Of a DNA stretch of 64,000 nt, positions 14,769-53,986 are shown one piece after another. The notes beneath the pieces were generated by a model, which searched no databases, was not told where the DNA came from, and worked only from the letters and a program-made list of their open reading frames with translations. Source of the DNA: Escherichia coli. Lineage in GTDB: Bacteria; Pseudomonadota; Gammaproteobacteria; Enterobacterales; Enterobacteriaceae. The position numbers and the translations under genes are program-made. How positions within the stretch are numbered: the first letter of the stretch is position 1; every line of letters starts with the position of its first letter. The stretch lies in the NCBI RefSeq assembly GCF_017348835.2, contig NZ_CP071375.1; one strand, 5' to 3'.

Positions 14769-14951
14769 AGTTACCAGTCTCATAGGAGCGGACAATTTTC
14801 CGTTAGGGCGGTAAATTGTACTTTGATACATGAAAATACGGGTTTTCTTGATTCAGACGCGCAGCGGTGTGCATTTGTTTGCCGCTTTAGCGAAATAAAT
14901 CAGAAAATCAGACGCGGTCGTTCACTTGTTCAGCAACCAGATCAAAAGCCA

Positions 14952-14979
14952 TTGACTCAGCAAGGGTTGACCGTATAAT
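14952..14979 (+). promoter_or_regulatory. probable sigma-70 promoter of argU
   Basis: TTGACT (14952-14957), 16-nt spacer, TATAAT (14974-14979), about 30 nt upstream of the tRNA. Confidence 0.45.
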
Positions 14980-15010
14980 TCACGCGATTACACCGCATTG
15001 CGGTATCAAC

Positions 15011-15087
15011 GCGCCCTTAGCTCAGTTGGATAGAGCAACGACCTTCTAAGTCGTGGGCCGCAGGTTCGAATCCTGCAGGGCGCGCCA
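15011..15087 (+). tRNA. argU: tRNA-Arg (anticodon UCU)
   Basis: 77-nt sequence gcgcccttagctcagttggatagagcaacgaccttctaagtcgtgggccgcaggttcgaatcctgcagggcgcgcca with TCT anticodon and GTTCGAATC T-loop. Confidence 0.95.
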
Positions 15088-15089
15088 TT
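15043..15089. repeat. attL core (3' part of argU)
   Basis: cttctaagtcgtgggccgcaggttcgaatcctgcagggcgcgcca(tt) is repeated exactly at 58302-58348. Confidence 0.8.
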
Positions 15090-15102
15090 ACAATTCAATC
15101 AG

Positions 15103-16265
15103 TTACGCCTTCTTTATATCCTCCATAATTCCACAGTGGGACATATTTGGGACATGATCACCAAAAATGTCGTCTATTTTCCTTGCATGCTCTGTCAAAT
15201 GATTAGGCGCAAGGTGAGCATACCTACGAACCATTTCTATGGACTCCCATCCGCCCATTTCCTGAAGCACAGATAATGGGACGCCTGACTGGATCAGCCA
15301 GCTTGCCCAGGTGTGTCTGAGGTCATGGAAACGGAAATCTTCAATTCCTGCACGACGACAAGCTGATAGCCATGATGTCTTGCTGTCGATGCGCATCTTC
15401 CTGACCGCAGGCGTTGATGTTCCATCTGCTCGCTTAGCCGCCTTGGTATGTACAAACACCCATTTGTGATGCTTGCCTATTTGATCACGCAACACTTTAC
15501 AGGCGGTATCGTTCAGCGCCACACCAATGGCGCGGTTTGATTTGCTCTCTTCTGGATTCACCCAGGCAACTCGTCGCTGCATGTCGATTTGTTGCCATTC
15601 CAGATTTATGATGTTCGACTTTCTCAGACCAGTTGCCAGCGCAAACTTGACGACAGATTTCAGTGGTTCGGGGCACTCATCAATAAGGCGTTTTGCTTCC
15701 TCCTTTTCCAGCCATCTGACTCGCTTGTTTCTGACCGCTGGTATCTTGATGACAGGCGCTTTTTCCAGCCACTTCCAGTCGCGTTCTGCAGCACGGAGAA
15801 TGGCCTTTATCATGGCAAGATGCTTTGCCTTTGTCTGAGTTGATACTGGCTTTGGTTCATAAACAGGCGGTTCTTTACCTTTCCTGATGGCGGCCTGAAC
15901 TTTCTGTTTCCATATTTCTTTCGTCTTTCTGTTATGCATTCTGCTTACAGCAGAGTAAATCTTTGCCTCCGAGATATCTTTAAGCCTTATACCCTCAAAA
16001 TGTTCAAGCCAGAACTCAATCCGGCTTTTATCTGAATCGAGAGATTTTTATCAGCTTTTTCCTCAAGCCATCTTAGGCAGGCCTCTTCAAAAGTGACATC
16101 AGGTAAATCCCCTAGCTTTTCTACTCGCCAGAGTTCTGCTTTTCGCTTGTCGTGCAACTCCTGAGCTTGCCGCTTGTCCTTTGTGCCAAGAGATTCCTTA
16201 ATTCGTTTCCCGCCCGGGAGCGAATACGAGGCATACCATATTTCATTTCTGCGGAAGAGTGACAT
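15103..16265 (-). pseudogene. int: tyrosine integrase disrupted by a 1-nt frameshift
   Basis: N-terminal ORF (16265 to 15987) and catalytic C-terminal ORF (15939 to 15103, with R..HxxR..Y motifs) are in different frames; C-terminal frame is open upstream to a TAA at 16048-16050; frames meet at T5 homopolymer 16045-16049. Confidence 0.8.
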
Positions 16266-16492
16266 TTTCTTTCCTCTGTTATGCCATCACCCGCGCTCAC
16301 CTGGACAGTATGCAGCGGAGACTGAAGCGCCGCAATGCAAGCTTGCCGTGTTGTGAGGTAAGGAGATTTTGGCTTGGTTGGATCTTTACGTGTTGCCTGT
16401 AGGCGGCCTGTTCGTATCCAGTTGGTGGCGGTTGGTCTGGATATCTTAAGAAACTGACAGGCCTCATCGAGTGTGAGGCTGTATGGCTCCAT
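16121..16492 (-). CDS. xis: excisionase-like HTH protein (AlpA/Xis family)
   Basis: Starts [31 protein letters not shown] (HTH); stop of upstream gene overlaps its ATG; 3' end overlaps the int start; true length uncertain. Confidence 0.5.
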
Positions 16493-16797
16493 TATTTCAC
16501 CTCTTGCTGTGTCATTGTTGAAAAATGGATACCAGCTCGTTGCTGCCAGACGATCCAACCGAGAGTCATATCCCATGCCATGTATTCGTTATCGCCGTTT
16601 TTTGCTCTCCGACGATCTACTAAGTCACCGAAACGCTTTTCCATGAATAATTCATAGGCTTCGCGTTCATCTGGCTCTACTTCCAGAGATACGAGTGCGA
16701 TTTCATAAGCACGGCGCTCAATATCGTCTCGAACCTCTAGGCTGCTGATTCGTTCTTTGATTTCTTTAATCAGTTCTTTATTGGTAAATGTGGTCAT
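16492..16797 (-). CDS. prophage protein, YfdT-like
   Basis: 101-aa ORF, translationally coupled in the leftward early operon; size and order match CPS-53 yfdT as recalled. Confidence 0.55.
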   Translation of the reverse strand: MTTFTNKELIKEIKERISSLEVRDDIERRAYEIALVSLEVEPDEREAYELFMEKRFGDLVDRRRAKNGDNEYMAWDMTLGWIVWQQRAGIHFSTMTQQEVK

Positions 16798-17159
16798 TAT
16801 GCTCCAGCCTCCGGTGCTTTTGGCATTACTGCCCAGTGAGTGATATTGACGTTTTCAAGGTCCCCGACCTGAAATGTCCACTGCCATTCTCCGGTTTCTT
16901 TTTGTCCCCAGTTGTACCAGAGAGAACGCCAGCCAATCAGCCAGCCTTCTCCATTAGCATCAAATAACAGAACACTTTCATTTGCTGGTGGCAGTTCAGC
17001 TGACACTGGTATTATTTTGTTTTCCAGTGCCGCACATTTAGCTTCAAGCGCGTCGAATTTACGTAACAGGTACTCAGCATTTGTTTCGTTCACTTTCAGA
17101 TCTCGCGGTACACATTTCCCGCGAAGAAACCCTTCCATTTCGAAAACATTCATGCGCAT
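16797..17159 (-). CDS. prophage protein, YfdS-like
   Basis: 120-aa ORF with Trp-rich C-terminus; ATGA overlap with neighbours. Confidence 0.55.
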   Translation of the reverse strand: MRMNVFEMEGFLRGKCVPRDLKVNETNAEYLLRKFDALEAKCAALENKIIPVSAELPPANESVLLFDANGEGWLIGWRSLWYNWGQKETGEWQWTFQVGDLENVNITHWAVMPKAPEAGA

Positions 17160-17686
17160 TTGCGTAACTCCGATAAATCGTTAAAACGTTCCATAAACAT
17201 CCCGTAGGCATGACCCGGTGCCAGTGGAATCACGTTGAACATCTCTGTTGCCGGGATGCCTTCCAGTACAGGCCAGAAAGAGCCATCATCAAGCCCGAGA
17301 TCGCGGCGTTCGGTTGCCAGCATGATGAGATCGGCATATTTCACGGGTGTACTCATAACTAGGGGTAACCCGTATTTCTCACGGATTACGGCGTCTATTT
17401 TTTCTTCCATTTGTTTATAGTCAGGAAGAAGGCGTTTCAGTGGTGCGGGAATGTCCTGGCAATACGCTTCTGTTGCATCATGCATTAACGCTTCAAAAGC
17501 AAATTCCTGCGGCACCAGCTGGCTGCAAAGAACCGCATGTTGGGCGACGCTGTAGAAGTGCGAAAGATGACCGGCAAAGCGACAGATATTTGAAAGGGAA
17601 ACCGCGATATCGTTAATATCGATGTCGTCTTTATTTATCTTGTCATAATAAAAATGCTTCCCGGAAAAAGTTTTAATAAATGACAT
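17150..17686 (-). CDS. HD-domain phosphohydrolase, YfdR-like 5'-deoxynucleotidase
   Basis: 178-aa product from ATG 17684-17686; HD-domain motifs (H..HD.E.Y..D). Confidence 0.7.
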   Translation of the reverse strand: MSFIKTFSGKHFYYDKINKDDIDINDIAVSLSNICRFAGHLSHFYSVAQHAVLCSQLVPQEFAFEALMHDATEAYCQDIPAPLKRLLPDYKQMEEKIDAVIREKYGLPLVMSTPVKYADLIMLATERRDLGLDDGSFWPVLEGIPATEMFNVIPLAPGHAYGMFMERFNDLSELRKCA

Positions 17687-17813
17687 TTTGTTCTCCACGT
17701 ATATGCACTGCACCGCGCTGAATTCTGGTAAAAGGAAGCCCTCACCATCCGGTGATTATTGAGTTAATTACGTTTCCATAAATGCCCCCGCAGGGGCATT
17801 TGCAGTAATGAAA

Positions 17814-18638
17814 TCAGGCGGTGAAAGTACCAATAAAGGTTTCTACTTTGCTGTCTTTGAATTTCTCAACAAGCAGATCACGAAATTCGTTAGCCATTTC
17901 TTCCTGCACCGCTTCCAGCTGAATAATGCGCAGAACCAGTACAGGACGATCGCCAGTGATAATGCTGAGGCGTAATTTAAACGGACGTTCTTTCAGGCCT
18001 TCAAACGGAACGCATTTAAATTCAAATGCCACTGGCATAATGTCTTTGGTCTTCGCTTCGACAGACTCCATCAGGGAGCGTTTGCCGCTGAAGTCATTAT
18101 CTTCAAAATCAGCGGTCTGGTTTGCTTCAATCGTGATTTTACGGACTGCCGCAGCCGCTTTTGTTGCCTGAATGGCGTCACCATTAGCATCAAAGCCCAC
18201 AAGGTAGTCGGCCCAGTCTTCGATCCATTCTGCCAGTGACTTCTGGGAGTTACGCTCGCCGTTAACAGACAACAGAGCAGAGAACGGTGCTGTCTTTTTC
18301 AGTTTGAGAGTGGCAGTGTTATCTGCGTGACCTGGCTCATCAATAGTACCCAGGTTAAGCACACTGACGGCACGCATATTATCGGCATCGATAAAGCAGC
18401 GGGTGCCTTCATCTGCAAGATCTTTAGAATAACGGGTAAAATCATCGATGCAGGCAGTGGAAAGTGCACCACGGAAACGGAAGCGATTTAAATTAAATTT
18501 TTCCAGATCATGAATGCGGAAATTCTCAGGCAATGCCACAGCATCGGCACCAATCTTACTGATAATTTCATTAACACCCTGAGCAGAAATAAGGGCATGG
18601 ATTTGATTAATTGCAGTTGCGTCTAAGTTCTGAGACAT
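17814..18638 (-). CDS. DUF2303-family prophage protein (YfdQ-like)
   Basis: 274-aa ORF; size and position match CPS-53 yfdQ as recalled. Confidence 0.6.
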
Positions 18639-18703
18639 AATAAGTCCTCACTATATAAAGATATTCAGTGATGAGATAAATAATCAGTTTATTACGAACG
18701 ATA

Positions 18704-19066
18704 TTAACGACCTGCTGCGCGGAGTTTTCCGTCAGGTTCACCGGCAAGAGTCAGTAATTGTCCCTGGTCTTCCTGCAGAATAGTCAGGCGACCACCGCGA
18801 TTGACATACATCGGCGTTTCGGTGGTGTCTTCTTCGGAAATTTTCCCGCGGTTAGTCGGGCGAATATATGAGAGTTTGTGTTTGATTTTCACACGGTTCT
18901 CATCAAATGGTTCGATTTCCAGGTTGAGTGAGACCTTACCTTTGGTTTTCGTGTTCATCACACCGGAAGCGACTTCACTGAGAACTGCGCCGATTTTGGT
19001 TTCAAATACGCCGCCGTCCAGCTCCCCGATAAATGCCTGCACATCAGTACTGCGTTCGCTAGCCAT
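18704..19066 (-). CDS. prophage protein, YfdP-like
   Basis: 120-aa product from ATG 19064-19066 (MASERSTDVQAFIGELDGG...); first gene of the leftward operon. Confidence 0.55.
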   Translation of the reverse strand: MASERSTDVQAFIGELDGGVFETKIGAVLSEVASGVMNTKTKGKVSLNLEIEPFDENRVKIKHKLSYIRPTNRGKISEEDTTETPMYVNRGGRLTILQEDQGQLLTLAGEPDGKLRAAGR

Positions 19067-19114
19067 TTTGCTGCTCCTCATCATATCGACCCTGCAAGGC
19101 CGATTAGTTTCTCC

Positions 19115-19247
19115 ACAAAACAGAGAAGAACACCTGTGGTGGCCGCCGCCCGGATGGATTGGGTTATGAGCCCGTCGTCCGGTGATGCTCTTCTCTGTTT
19201 TGTAAAAAGGACGGTACCAGCCGGAAGCAAGGGTACAAGCTGGTACC
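19115..19247. promoter_or_regulatory. structured leader: 15-bp perfect inverted repeat plus leftward hairpin/U-tract
   Basis: acaaaacagagaaga (19115-19129) and its exact reverse complement (19189-19203) with 59-nt spacer; stem ggtaccagc/gctggtacc (19213-19247) followed on the minus strand by TTTTT (19204-19208). Confidence 0.4.
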
Positions 19248-19468
19248 GCCAGGACTACACACAGCATAAAGTTGTGGTGCCGGGTGCCCTCCCGGTGCCT
19301 GGCGAAGGTTGCACACCAGGCGGGTGGGTATCCACAGAAGGTCGACTGTCAGCCTCAACCTTAACCCGCGTGCGCTGAGCCGCATTCACCACAACGCTAA
19401 GGATTCTCTCTGGTTGAAAATACTTAGCTGTTATGTGCCTGCTTTTAGCCACATCAGGCGAGGTGGAC

Positions 19469-19522
19469 CTGGTTATTCCCCAACAACAAGGATTCGGTTA
19501 ATCTGGATATCCCCAACAACAA
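19469..19522 (+). repeat. two tandem ~20-nt direct repeats just upstream of the 19537 ORF
   Basis: ctggttattccccaacaacaa (19469-19489) and ctggatatccccaacaacaa (19503-19522), period about 33 nt. Confidence 0.6.
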
Positions 19523-19536
19523 TAAGAGTATTCAAT

Positions 19537-20052
19537 GTGATCGCTGAATTAACGGCAGCAATGACGGCTATTCGTGAAACAGCCCAGATTGCAAAACTAA
19601 TGAACGAGGCAAAAACTCAAGCTGAAGTAAATGCGGCTATTGGTGAGCTGAACTCAAAGCTTGCGTCTATTCAGCGCGAATGCGTGTCTCTCGTTGAACT
19701 GGTGGGCTCTTATCAAGAAATAAATGCTTCTCTCAAAGCTAAAATTGCAGAATTCGAAAACTTTGAGGCTCAGACGGAAGGCTATATCCTTAACCAACTT
19801 GAGTCGGGTACTTTTGTATACTCGAAGGAGGTAATCGTGAACGGTGGCAGCATAACCATGCATCTTTGCCCAAAATGTTTTGGACAAAAGATAGTATCGA
19901 TACTTCAACCATTCCCGGTTAGCGAAGATGAGCTTTTTCATAAAAGCAGGTGCCTCCACTGTGAAAATAAGTTTCTGATGAATAAAAATCCGGATTACGT
20001 ATCGCCTCCATCCATTGAGGAGTTGTCCAGAAAACTTAACGGCAATCTGTAG
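19537..20052 (+). CDS. hypothetical protein: N-terminal coiled-coil, C-terminal CxxC...CxxC zinc ribbon
   Basis: ORF frame open from 19309; plausible starts GTG 19537 or ATG 19561; heptad-like N-terminus (IAKLMNEAKTQAEVNAAIGELNSKLASIQREC), C-terminal HLCPKCFGQK...SRCLHCENKF; own hairpin terminator downstream. Confidence 0.6.
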   Translation: MIAELTAAMTAIRETAQIAKLMNEAKTQAEVNAAIGELNSKLASIQRECVSLVELVGSYQEINASLKAKIAEFENFEAQTEGYILNQLESGTFVYSKEVIVNGGSITMHLCPKCFGQKIVSILQPFPVSEDELFHKSRCLHCENKFLMNKNPDYVSPPSIEELSRKLNGNL

Positions 20053-20090
20053 ATTACTACTGTTGTGGATATCCAGATTGTTAAAGAGCT

Positions 20091-20114
20091 AAGCGTCCTG
20101 TAGGGCGCTTTTTT
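20091..20114 (+). terminator. rho-independent terminator of the 19537-20052 gene
   Basis: Stem aagcgtcc/gggcgctt with tgta loop, then T6. Confidence 0.6.
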
Positions 20115-20280
20115 GTTGCTAACGAATCATCCTGGACTTCATATGCCCCAGGCGGCTACTTCGTGGGCGTCCTGCCTGTTCGTTTTTGACATTTACTGAC
20201 TGCTTACGACACATGCACCGTGTTGCAACCAGATTTTGTTGTAATCCTGTAGTTGGTCTGGAACAAAAGATAAAATTAAA

Positions 20281-20317
20281 TTGCGAGATATGCAAGCGAT
20301 ATTTGCGAGGTATGCAA
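20281..20317. promoter_or_regulatory. OL-like operator pair with candidate leftward promoter
   Basis: 15-mers TTGCGAGATATGCAA (20281-20295) and TTGCGAGGTATGCAA (20303-20317) share TTGC-N7-GCAA with sites in the cI-cro intergenic region; minus strand carries TTGCAT / 17 nt / TATCTT. Confidence 0.5.
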
Positions 20318-20330
20318 ATTTATAGGTAGT

Positions 20331-20351
20331 AAAAAGCCACCTTTCGGTGGC
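20331..20351 (-). terminator. rho-independent terminator after the cI-like gene
   Basis: Hairpin gccacc-tttc-ggtggc (20336-20351) followed on the minus strand by TTTTT (20331-20335). Confidence 0.6.
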
Positions 20352-20371
20352 CGATGGATGGGATATTGAGG

Positions 20372-21064
20372 TTAATTATGTCTCTTAAGGGTTTGCGACT
20401 GACTGATTAAGACCTTTCCAAAGACCATGAATCGGTGTTCGTTTTCGCTAGTAATTCCCCATTCACGGTAAATCTGGTTATCAGAAATCACCAGCAGTTT
20501 GTCAGGAATCATTTGAAGTCTTTTAACGTATATTTTGTCATCAAAACCAAAGACATATATACCATCACCATCAAACTGATTGATGCTGACATCAACGAAG
20601 ATGAGATCTCCTGGCTCAATGGTTGGACACATACTGTCCCCACGAACGTTGATAACTTTGATGTGATTGGCTGGTCGTCCGCCGAACATTGATACAGCAT
20701 TATCAGTTCTGTATTCGATGGCATGAATCACATCAATGACATCACCGCCCTGGATAAGGCCATTTCCCGCACTGGCACTGATATCCAGCATTTCAATACG
20801 GAACACATCCTTCACCTGCGCAACATCCTCATTATTACTGTTTTTATATACAGTATTACTTTTGTGGGCAGAGGTAAAGAGATCAGCAATATCAACACCT
20901 AAGCTCTTGGCAATATTACTCAGTGTTTGTTCGGTAAATTGTTTTTGCTTACCCGTTTCTAAGCGCGAGATGTTCGCCGCATCTACTCCTATTGCTTCAG
21001 CGAGATCGGCGATTTTCATGTTCTTCGCTTGGCGAAGTTGTCTGACTCGGTTTCCTATGTTCAT
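20372..21064 (-). CDS. cI: CI-like phage repressor (HTH_XRE plus S24 LexA-like peptidase domain)
   Basis: 230-aa; N-terminal HTH (RVRQLRQAKNMKIADLAEAIGVDAANISRLETGK), C-terminal GDSM serine and VKR lysine; divergent from a cro-like gene. Confidence 0.85.
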   Translation of the reverse strand: MNIGNRVRQLRQAKNMKIADLAEAIGVDAANISRLETGKQKQFTEQTLSNIAKSLGVDIADLFTSAHKSNTVYKNSNNEDVAQVKDVFRIEMLDISASAGNGLIQGGDVIDVIHAIEYRTDNAVSMFGGRPANHIKVINVRGDSMCPTIEPGDLIFVDVSINQFDGDGIYVFGFDDKIYVKRLQMIPDKLLVISDNQIYREWGITSENEHRFMVFGKVLISQSQTLKRHN

Positions 21065-21161
21065 GCGTTTATTACATTTCTTTATTGCGTGATAAGCAAA
21101 TCAACTTGCGCAAAATAATTGCGTGAAATAACATGCATAACGCGCAATATTTGGAGGGCAT
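21065..21161. promoter_or_regulatory. OR-like operator/promoter region between cI and cro
   Basis: Repeated TTGCG/CGCAA half-sites; 15-mers TTGCGTGATAAGCAA (21085-21099) and ATGCATAACGCGCAA (21133-21147); RBS ggaggg before cro. Confidence 0.55.
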
Positions 21162-21422
21162 ATGCAATCACCATTACGAAATGTGCGTAAGGCGCATGGT
21201 TTCACTTTGCAGCATGTTGCTGCGGGTGTTCAAGTCAATCCAGCGACGTTGAGTCGTATTGAGAGGCTGGAGCAGATTCCATCTATCGAGCTTGCAGAAC
21301 GTTTAGCCAATTTTTTTAAGGGTGAAGTCAGCGAAATGCAGATTCTTTATCCGGCACGTTTTCAATCTAGCCAAAACCAGAATGGGTTTAAACCACAGGA
21401 ACAGGAGGTGAACCGTGGGTAA
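21162..21422 (+). CDS. cro: Cro-like HTH regulator
   Basis: 86-aa HTH_XRE protein (FTLQHVAAGVQVNPATLSRIER) divergent from cI. Confidence 0.75.
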   Translation: MQSPLRNVRKAHGFTLQHVAAGVQVNPATLSRIERLEQIPSIELAERLANFFKGEVSEMQILYPARFQSSQNQNGFKPQEQEVNRG

Positions 21423-21966
21423 GCATCACTGGAAAGTAGAAAAACAGCCTGAGTGTTACGTGAAAGCTGTCAGAAAAACTATCGCAGCGTTGCCGGGGGG
21501 GTACGCTGAAGCTGCTGACTGGCTGGATGTAACAGAGAACGCATTATTTAACCGCCTTCGTGCCGATGGCGATCAGATTTTCCCGCTGGGATGGGCAATG
21601 ATTTTGCAACGTGCTGGTGGAACTCACTTCATTGCTGACGCTGTGGCGCAGTCTGCAAATGGCGTCTTTGTGTCTCTTCCTGATGTCGAGGATGTGGACA
21701 ACGCCGATATCAACCAACGCCTGCTGGAAGTCATTGAACAGATCGGCAGTTATTCAAAACAGATTCGTTCAGCAATTGAAGACGGTGTAGTGGAACCGCA
21801 TGAGAAGACAGCAATTAACGATGAGCTGTACCTCTCAATTTCGAAGCTGCAGGAGCATGCAGCACTGGTCTACAAAATCTTTTGCGTTTCAGAAAGTAGT
21901 GACGCCCGCGAGTGTGCAGCTCCGGGCGCCGTGGCGTGTCGTGACTGTGGAGAAACTAACGCATGA
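21415..21966 (+). CDS. phage regulatory protein, possibly CII (CP76)-like
   Basis: 183-aa ORF directly after cro with overlapping start; family assignment from position and recalled similarity only. Confidence 0.4.
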
Positions 21967-30399: not shown

Positions 30400-30594
30400 T
30401 TATTCATCATCACTTTGGATTGATGTATATGCTCTCTTTTCTGACGTTAGTCTCCGACGGCAGGCTTCAATGACCCAGGCTGAGAAATTCCCGGACCCTT
30501 TTTGCTCAAGAGCGATGTTAATTTGTTCAATCATTTGGTTAGGAAAGCGGATGTTGCGGGTTGTTGTTCTGCGGGTTCTGTTCTTAGTTGACAT
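30400..30594 (-). CDS. DUF3950-family small protein (YlcI-like)
   Basis: 64-aa basic N-terminus; between bor and cos. Confidence 0.55.
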   Translation of the reverse strand: MSTKNRTRRTTTRNIRFPNQMIEQINIALEQKGSGNFSAWVIEACRRRLTSEKRAYTSIQSDDE

Positions 30595-53402: not shown

Positions 53403-53986
53403 TGGCATTCAGAATGAGTGAACAAGCACGGACCATAAAAATTTATAATCTGCTGGCCGGAACTAATGAATTTATTGGTGAAGGTGATGCATATATTCCG
53501 CCTCATACAGGTCTGCCAGCAAACAGTACCGATATTGCACCACCAGATATTCCTGCTGGCTTTGTGGCTGTTTTCAACAGTGATGAGGCATCGTGGCATC
53601 TCGTTGAAGACCATCTGGGTAAAACGGTTTATGACGTAGCGTCAGGGGACGAGTTATTTATTTCTGAACTCGGTCCGTTACCGGAAAATGTTACCTGGTT
53701 ATCGCCGGAAGGGGAGTTTCAGAAGTGGAACGGCACAGCCTGGGTGAAAGATGCAGAAGCAGAAAAACTGTTCCGGATCCGAGAGGCGGAAGAAATAAAA
53801 AACAGCCTGATGCAGGTAGCCAGTGAGCATATTGCGCCACTTCAGGATGCTGTAGATCTGGAAATCGCAACGGAGGAAGAAACCTCATTGTTGGAAGCCT
53901 GGAAAAAGTATCGGGTGTTGCTGAACCGTGTTGATACATCAACTGCACCTGATATTGAGTGGCCTACGAATCCTGTCAGGGAGTAA
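53402..53986 (+). CDS. tfa: tail fibre assembly protein (Tfa)
   Basis: 194-aa, start overlaps the stf stop. Confidence 0.85.

Follow-up and report, generated by a model that had tools for sequence, protein, structure and literature searches.

The yfdPQRST Genes of an Escherichia coli Prophage and the Conserved RNA in the Leader of Their Operon

Introduction

A lambdoid prophage that has neither a Red-type recombination module nor an N gene raises two questions, namely what its early-left operon encodes and how that operon is transcribed. We examined these questions in a stretch of 64,000 nucleotides (nt) of an Escherichia coli chromosome (NCBI RefSeq contig NZ_CP071375.1; hereafter designated as the window), in which five minus-strand open reading frames (ORFs) fill positions 16492-19066 between xis and the immunity region. 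A first-pass annotation, made from the sequence, had described them as a yfdPQRST-like module of five translationally coupled genes, one of which encodes a YfdR-type HD-domain protein, and had seen neither exo/bet/gam nor an N-like gene. The explanation that we find best, and hold to be probable, is that the locus is the early-left (PL) operon of a lambdoid prophage of the SfV/ST64B type, equipped with a yfd module that blocks DnaA. The yfd module itself adds nothing new here. The conserved leader RNA found close to PL matters more.

Results and Discussion

The Five Genes Are yfdPQRST

The five leftward genes of the first-pass annotation agreed exactly with the ORF list, while the order of product sizes given there (120, 274, 178, 101, and 120 residues) is to be corrected to 120, 274, 178, 120, and 101. 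The comparison to yfdPQRST proved right in the strict sense: the five genes are the yfdPQRST genes of CPS-53 in E. coli K-12 and orf32-28 of phage SfV. The proteins share 98-99% identity with those of K-12 (Table 1; YfdR carries the substitutions V23D, R92Q, and P108L), the module DNA is 97-99.6% identical to SfV orf28-32 and to SfIV, PhiR29_1, and Kati, and the order P-Q-R-S-T on one strand, followed by xis and int, matches the K-12 and SfV annotations. RefSeq calls the same genes, named yfdP/Q/R/T, in E. coli PE164, the chromosome of which is 100% identical to positions 14800-21500 of the window. At least 80% of the same interval is held by 189 of 5,426 complete E. coli genomes.

Translational coupling was borne out only for the distal part of the module. 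The yfdR and yfdS genes overlap by 10 nt, and yfdS and yfdT, as well as yfdT and xis, share one base (TAATG), whereas gaps of 65 and 127 nt separate yfdP from yfdQ and yfdQ from yfdR, respectively. The latter gap contains a G+C-rich hairpin (Table 1) that is not followed by a good U-tract and may act in RNA processing or stability or as a weak terminator. The placement of the module between xis and the immunity region was also correct, but the module does not abut the latter, as 1.3 kb lies between yfdP and cI.

No Red-Type or N-Type Gene Was Detected

Scans against PHROGs, NCBIfam, and PADLOC assigned no recombination, Gam, or N family to the yfd proteins, and the structural models of YfdQ and YfdP displayed no fold match to Red-beta/RecT/Erf/Rad52, lambda Exo, Gam, or single-stranded DNA-binding protein (SSB). 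For an N-like antiterminator left of cI, there was no family match either. None of the leftward ORFs between cI and yfdP is arginine-rich at the N-terminus, the criterion being at least 5 Arg within an 18-residue N-terminal window. A basic reading frame of 31 codons at about 20119-20215 only overlies the invariant core of the leader RNA described below, and orf33 of SfV (99 residues), which occupies the position of N, is not arginine-rich. No boxA/boxB-like motif was seen by eye in 20085-20262, a region on which no dedicated model was run. As the family, fold, and arginine-rich ORF scans were all negative, the statements of the first-pass annotation that Red and N are absent stand; homology to Red or N proteins, the finding by which that annotation would have been overturned, was sought by the family scans and by the fold searches with YfdQ and YfdP, and was absent. 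Elsewhere in the prophage, an ORF of 64 codons at 30400-30594 (minus strand), near the lysis/terminase boundary, has an Arg/Thr-rich N-terminus (MSTKNRTRRTTTRNIRF...); its place and orientation do not suit N, and it might encode a small DNA-binding protein.

A Conserved Leader RNA Lies Downstream of PL

The first-pass annotation overlooked the non-coding features upstream of yfdP, which are relevant to the transcription of an operon that lacks N. One of them is a conserved, promoter-proximal RNA structure found in phages with no detected or annotated N homologue. A block of about 66 nt after PL is kept in SfV and PhiR29_1 despite different immunity regions. The alignment of 14 diverse copies by MAFFT, analyzed with RNAalifold, yielded three helices, P1 (AACGAA/UUCGUU; 6 bp), P2 (GGC/GCC; 3 bp), and P3 (CCUGG/CCAGG; a 5-bp hairpin), that surround the invariant AGGCAGGACGCCCACGAAGUAGCC (24-nt core). 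In this alignment, 96.9% of the cells were paired, compensatory changes occurred in all of the 11 pairs of P1 and P3, and P2 was invariant. The covariation score was 0.676; shuffled alignments gave 0.176, with none of 500 reaching the observed value, and sliding the partners gave no more than 0.15. Among 81 distinct leader sequences, 95.6% of the cells pair and 245 compensatory cells were counted versus 71 in shuffles, figures that lean towards the structure because this alignment was fitted to the covariance model (R1). The structure emerged only through comparative data: the 178 nt after PL, folded alone, were no more stable than shuffles (z = +0.4). R1 matched the window once, at 20103-20196 on the minus strand with 92.6 bits, and did not match near PR. 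Rfam was scanned over the whole window at gathering scores and over 16000-21500 at E <= 5, and these scans returned tRNA, IS009, ALIL, and a sub-threshold STnc100 match only, with nothing at the leader.

The leader is widespread. With a query of 116 nt, blastn retrieved 56 phage records that contain the block, none of which annotates it, including SfII, SfIV, SfV, ST64B, phiNP, mEp237, SPN3UB, Pantoea phage AH07, Yersinia phages YeP1-3, Pectobacterium phage ZF40, Klebsiella phages, and Aeromonas phage pAEv1818. Lambda, P22, HK022, and HK639 were absent among the 56 records, and R1 found no match in K-12 CPS-53, HK022, or HK639. The block was present in 1,526 of the 5,426 complete E. coli genomes (28%) and the invariant core in at least 120 IMG/VR contigs. 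T5-like Providencia phages have the block too, within their terminal repeats. In phage PR1 (locus L011, 2490-2585, in both terminal repeats), the element follows a T5-type early promoter (TTGCTT-16-TATACT) and heads the pre-early operon, which includes the A1/A2 DNA-transfer genes. Thus, the leader element is not confined to temperate lambdoid phages.

In eight of the annotated temperate-phage loci examined, a repressor-type gene (cI-like, S24/LexA-like, or XRE/DicA-type) of the same orientation precedes the leader, its stop codon being 100-170 nt away. A sigma-70 promoter scoring at least 9/12 was found in 57 of 108 contexts, with the -10 hexamer ending a median of 14 nt before P1, so that the leader normally constitutes the very 5' end of the transcript; here it lies at about +75. 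Of 79 contexts, 38, 32, and 34 encode homologues of YfdP, YfdQ, and YfdR, respectively, downstream of the leader and on its strand, the others carrying RecE-type or other cargo, and the first ORFs downstream of the leader belong to unrelated families, none of them annotated as N. As both the cargo and the first ORFs vary, we regard that the leader belongs to the promoter rather than to the yfd genes and has no adjacent protein partner.

From its position, size, and context, we judge the leader to be the best candidate for a processive antiterminator that works without N, or for an element that protects a long untranslated stretch against Rho, in the manner of put although outside the put family. 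Going further, it is conceivable, though we put this forward with reserve, that the leader represents a new and widespread class of protein-independent early-operon regulator (an RNA polymerase-binding antiterminator, an anti-Rho element, or a riboswitch-like aptamer), distinct from put and absent from Rfam 15, that replaces N in phages of the SfV, ST64B, ZF40, mEp237, and SPN3UB types and heads the pre-early operons of T5-like Providencia phages. The leader has no match in Rfam 15, yet it may already be among the antiterminator RNAs of King et al. (2011). Other roles can be envisaged. The junction, a closed three-way one whose nucleotides are invariant, possibly forms a riboswitch-like aptamer, the leader possibly stabilizes the transcript at its 5' end, or the GGA in the loop of P2 possibly provides a binding site for a host protein. 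We take this GGA to resemble a CsrA site. A hammerhead was considered as well and rejected, as the junction lengths, judged by eye, do not fit.

To our knowledge, processive antitermination by RNA alone has been known from a single phage family, that of put. If the candidate role of the leader were true, early operons would be headed by another such RNA, unrelated to put and much more widespread, which would explain how a large group of temperate phages copes without N. The leader occurs in 28% of the complete E. coli genomes and also in phages of Aeromonas, Yersinia, Pectobacterium, Klebsiella, and Providencia. The leader would then also offer a new probe of the control of RNA polymerase or Rho.

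Inhibition of DnaA as the Probable Function of the Module

The yfdQRST genes of K-12 were isolated as a multicopy suppressor of hda-185 (Noguchi and Katayama, 2016; PMC4776307). According to that study, multicopy yfdQ and yfdR together with yfdS or yfdT suppress overinitiation in hda-185, dnaAcos, and seqA mutants, and inhibition of initiation by the same combination was seen both in wild-type cells and in vitro. The inhibition of initiation at oriC by yfdR requires yfdQ and either yfdS or yfdT, while yfdP is dispensable. Purified YfdR binds domain I of DnaA in a manner dependent on Phe46 and competes with DiaA and DnaB (PMC4776307). The description of the genes other than yfdR as being of unknown role is thus partly superseded, since yfdQ and yfdS or yfdT are needed along with yfdR. 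On the basis of these experiments with the K-12 proteins, a DnaA-directed block of host initiation appears to be the best-supported function of the module, above a change of the nucleotide pools.

The nucleotide pools could come into play through YfdR itself. The assignment of this protein to the HD-domain proteins of the YfdR type was confirmed by matches to Pfam (YfbR-like, E 1.2e-5; HD_3, E 6e-3), to PDB 2gz4 (E 8e-13), and to the PHROG 'deoxyribonucleoside 5' monophosphate phosphatase' (E 3e-109), and the sequence bears the HD signature with the H...HD...D metal ligands and the HDxxE motif (HDATE, in LMHDATEAY). It could therefore be argued that YfdR works mainly as a 5'-deoxynucleotidase, shifting deoxynucleoside mono- and triphosphates (dNMP/dNTP) for the phage or starving the host, as the first-pass annotation had suggested; the HD signature and the HDxxE motif fit the YfbR-like family, and RefSeq and PHROGs name the protein a 5'-deoxynucleotidase or dNMP phosphatase. 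We nevertheless consider this alternative unlikely. YfdR is not a YfbR equivalog, as it scored 20.6 bits against a cut-off of 122 (NCBIfam NF003009), and this sub-threshold match was the only one among the five yfd proteins, none of which reached a curated NCBIfam cut-off. YfdR's affinities for nucleotides are far below those of YfbR (Zimmerman, 2008, as cited in PMC4776307). A nucleotidase alone also leaves unexplained both the need for yfdQ and yfdS or yfdT and the Phe46-dependent binding of DnaA. Thus, the HD fold predicted earlier stands, but its proposed role in the dNMP/dNTP pools is less supported than the binding of DnaA (PMC4776307).

Another alternative, which we find improbable, is that YfdQ, with YfdP, is an unrecognized annealing or end-binding factor that replaces Red. 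The module occupies the position of the Rec module of lambdoid phages, and deletion of yfdQ causes weak sensitivity to methyl methanesulfonate and H2O2 (cited in PMC4776307). YfdQ matched the PDB entry 9o7m, 'YfdQ protein', in a PDB sequence search (E 5e-44); the 36 identical chains of this entry, for which no publication was found, indicate that YfdQ forms or joins a large assembly. YfdP, YfdQ, and YfdR also travel together downstream of the leader at the frequencies given above. On the other hand, the fold searches returned no similarity to Red-beta/RecT/Erf/Rad52, Exo, Gam, or SSB, and the AlphaFold model of YfdQ (predicted local distance difference test score, 90.5) has no fold relative in the PDB-based library searched, which did not contain 9o7m, so that DUF2303 seems to be a new fold. 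Moreover, the cluster coexists with a full, separate Rec module in ArgO145 and is not universal among phages without Rec, and Zheng et al. (2025; PMC12315714) judged such a role unlikely. In our phage search, records of Stx2c-converting phages also matched most of the module (query 274-2852).

A benefit to the lysogen, by which low-level expression from the prophage would aid stress survival or phage resistance of the host rather than lytic growth, agrees with the intactness of the module in the decayed CPS-53 of K-12 and in the present prophage with a broken integrase, and with the raised sensitivity to H2O2 or acid upon deletion of CPS-53, yfdQ, or yfdS (Wang, 2010, cited in PMC4776307), but is hard to credit because none of the six proteins scanned matched a PADLOC defence model, the genes are placed behind PL, which the repressor controls, and have the early lytic orientation, and the same module is found in the viable phages SfV, SfIV, PhiR29, and Kati.

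Several observations weigh against the operon being a functional early-left unit that blocks DnaA. Deletion of yfdQRST gave no replication phenotype, and Noguchi and Katayama allow that the inhibition may be an artefact of overexpression (PMC4776307); all of the functional data were obtained by overexpressing the genes from multicopy in K-12. With its integrase broken, the prophage may never finish a lytic cycle. In a strict perfect-stem scan within 1.5 kb downstream of the leader, sense-strand terminators were found in 5 and antisense ones in 34 of 108 contexts, so that a logic of read-through at intrinsic terminators is statistically unsupported. The 43.3-kb prophage carries five top-strand Chi sites (16984, 21613, 24368, 25517, and 25788), fewer than the norm of at least eight in the class of Rec-less phages described below and not above the third-order Markov expectation of 4.4, besides one on the bottom strand (25917). 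The orientation and location of the sites (the int-to-Q segment, the right third of the vegetative map) do fit that class.

With these points considered, we retain the DnaA-blocking early-left operon as the best explanation, and the following mechanism can be proposed. The operon would lack a Red-type module and an N gene and carry yfdP-Q-R-S-T as cargo, followed by xis and a broken int. Upon loss of the repressor, the module may shut down initiation on the host chromosome, as judged from the near-identical K-12 proteins. YfdR, an HD-domain protein and supposedly a weak 5'-deoxynucleotidase, would bind domain I of DnaA at Phe46 in competition with DiaA and DnaB, and in vivo would need YfdQ and YfdS or YfdT, with YfdP being dispensable. 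Recombination for the formation of concatemers would be left to RecBCD/RecA of the host. Noguchi and Katayama likewise proposed that the genes perhaps served host shut-off in an ancestral phage (PMC4776307). As near-identical viable phages (PhiR29_1 and SfV) exist, the module is still a useful test bed for the shut-off of host initiation in lytic growth.

The Region between cI and yfdP

The operator motif TTGCGAGnTATGCAA occurs at two sites only in the window, with two copies each (20281-20317 and 21085-21147). The pair left of cI is OL, which the promoter PL overlaps, and the pair between cI and cro is OR. Downstream of the leader lies a gene for a protein of 171 residues on the opposite strand, which converges on cI, is antisense to the PL transcript, and replaces orf33 of SfV. 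It is bracketed by inverted repeats of 26 nt (19500-19525 and 20054-20079; 85% complementary) and looks like a moron or a small cassette.

Between this gene and yfdP, a putative structured RNA resembling STnc100/PasD was recognized, with a score (36.5 bits) that is below the gathering score of 47. The region closes with a 13-bp terminator-like hairpin followed by U5, 135 nt before yfdP, and positions 19060-19450 fold at -164.8 kcal/mol versus -132.5 for shuffles (z = -5.45). PGAP treats 19081-19392 as a pseudogene with a frameshift. The one-base insertion (G) that produces this frameshift in comparison with SfV and PhiR29_1 falls in a hairpin loop of the STnc100 alignment, and equivalent sub-threshold STnc100 matches are situated ahead of yfdP homologues in SfV, PhiR29_1, and ST64B. 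Thus, we regard an RNA as a better reading than a pseudogene. The long hairpin at 19115-19203 lies directly upstream of the ribosome-binding site of yfdP and is kept in SfV and PhiR29_1, but absent from K-12.

Before reaching yfdP, transcripts from PL would have to pass through about 1.2 kb of RNA that is untranslated and highly structured, including the terminator-like hairpin that ends the STnc100-like RNA, and the 64-nt leader would be the best candidate for read-through without N.

The Prophage and Its Ends

The prophage is inserted at argU, downstream of sfmF and fimZ. An exact direct repeat of at least 40 nt at 15043 and 58302 corresponds to the 3' part of argU, and from this recurrence we delimit the prophage to about 15043-58350 (43.3 kb). 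It carries immunity, replication, and lambda-like late genes, the late region resembling that of lambda. The integrase gene is of the intD type and is split (Table 1), while xis and the remaining prophage look intact; the broken integrase may lock the prophage in place.

Three observations were made in passing. An IS009 small RNA lies near the tail-fibre end of the prophage (53745-53943, plus strand; Rfam 225 bits, above gathering). An ALIL pseudoknot, an IS3-type frameshift element, is situated just beyond the right attachment site (attR; 59007-59123, plus strand; 120 bits, above gathering). The isrK and C4 antisense RNA genes adjoin in the right operons of SfV (locus L002, 9153-9341) and ST64B (locus L007, 242-430) with scores above gathering, and neither was found in the prophage of the window by the Rfam scan of the whole window at gathering scores.

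Table 1. Features of the early-left region and its surroundings in the window.
Feature	Position	Strand	Evidence
tRNA-Arg gene (argU), carrying the left attachment site (attL)	15011..15084	+	Rfam tRNA, 72 bits; PE164 annotation
intD-type integrase, disrupted into pieces of 278 and 92 residues	15103..16265	-	ORF list; RefSeq 'frameshifted; internal stop'
xis (excisionase)	16121..16492	-	PHROG 2907, E 1e-45; start codon overlaps the yfdT stop codon by one base
yfdT, 101 residues, no Pfam family	16492..16797	-	99/101 identical to K-12 YfdT
yfdS, 120 residues, C-terminal DUF551 (Pfam, E 4e-4)	16797..17159	-	118/120 identical to K-12 YfdS
yfdR, 178 residues, HD-domain YfbR-like phosphohydrolase	17150..17686	-	175/178 identical to K-12 YfdR
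9-bp G+C-rich hairpin in the yfdQ-yfdR gap, AAAUGCCCC-UGC-GGGGCAUUU	17780..17801	-	read from sequence
yfdQ, 274 residues, DUF2303 (PF10065)	17814..18638	-	271/274 identical to K-12 YfdQ
yfdP, 120 residues, PF27127 (via homologues)	18704..19066	-	117/120 identical to K-12 YfdP
Long hairpin with arms of 18 nt that are 94% complementary; minimum free energy fold of about 25 bp	19115..19203	-	inverted repeat; fold
STnc100/PasD-like structured RNA	19201..19425	-	Rfam RF02076, 36.5 bits (sub-threshold), E 2e-6, model 1-206 aligned
Gene of 171 residues, coiled coil and CxxC...CxxC	19537..20052	+	PHROG 1244, unknown function; own terminator at 20091-20110
Conserved three-helix leader RNA, 64 nt, about 75 nt after PL	20121..20184	-	covariance model R1
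OL/PL, 15-bp operators at 20281-20295 and 20303-20317, promoter TTGCAT-17-TATCTT	20267..20317	-	motif and promoter scans
cI-type repressor (helix-turn-helix and S24 peptidase)	20372..21064	-	PHROG 4/CI-like; terminator follows at 20335-20352

Comparison with Known Systems

The leader can be compared with the put RNAs of HK022 and HK639 by analogy only. Both are of similar size (about 64-70 nt), lie at the 5' end of the PL transcript (the leader does so in most phages), and belong to phages without N; like put, the leader is a transcribed element soon after an early promoter, with no conserved protein gene adjoining it. However, the leader is a closed three-way junction and put consists of two tandem stem-loops, the put motifs GAACGGCGCG...AAACCAUGCGUCGG are absent from the leader, and no second copy of the leader follows PR. 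Membership in the put family was therefore rejected, as by eye no motifs are shared with HK022 putL or the annotated HK639 putL and R1 matched neither. As for the STnc100-like RNA, the alignment to the STnc100 (RF02076)/PasD small RNAs is full-length and includes the terminal hairpin, and the location in a prophage is shared. STnc100 and PasD have been described as diverged relatives in Stx-type prophages (bioRxiv preprint 10.64898/2026.05.13.724894).

CPS-53 (KpLE1) of K-12 has the same five genes with the same order, lengths, and junctions. In K-12, however, the module sits in a left-over element of 10 kb at argW, in contrast to the 43-kb prophage at argU studied here. The conservation with K-12 begins about 20 nt before the ATG of yfdP, and the sequence upstream (the yfdO side) is unrelated, with no PL, leader RNA, or STnc100-like region. 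With SfV, and also with SfII, SfIV, PhiR29_1, and Kati, the DNA identity of 97-99.6% extends from the module to the STnc100-like region and the leader RNA, and the position between xis and cI is the same. SfV differs in the immunity region and in orf33, which stands where the present prophage has the opposite-strand gene.

At the level of phage classes, 68 of 314 lambdoid phages have been reported to lack a Rec module (Zheng et al., 2025; PMC12315714). This class is typified by LLS, which has no N homologue and bears yfdR/Q/P-type genes in the early-left operon, and most of its members are rich in Chi, with at least 8 and typically 8-25 sites in active orientation; Zheng et al. speculate that a put-like RNA performs early antitermination (PMC12315714). 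The LLS group, ST64B, and phiNP share with the present prophage the absence of SSB, exonuclease, annealing, and anti-RecBCD genes and of N, the early-left genes of the yfdP/Q/R type, and the bias of Chi to the top strand in the right third of the vegetative map. The present prophage departs from the class norm in having 5 top-strand Chi sites versus 8-25 and a broken integrase. As lambdoid phages with yfdPQR and without Rec and N have already been published, the module is an instance of a described class. It is thus already known both as genes, through the inhibition of DnaA, and as a phage class, and lacking Red and N does not set this prophage apart.

In its proposed mode of action, the module resembles P of lambda and SirA of Bacillus subtilis, both of which bind DnaA and block initiation at oriC without being homologous to YfdR. 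The Phe46/Phe49 patch of DnaA domain I serves SirA as well as YfdR (PMC4776307), while lambda P binds domain III and is a helicase loader; YfdR, in contrast, has an HD fold and needs partners.

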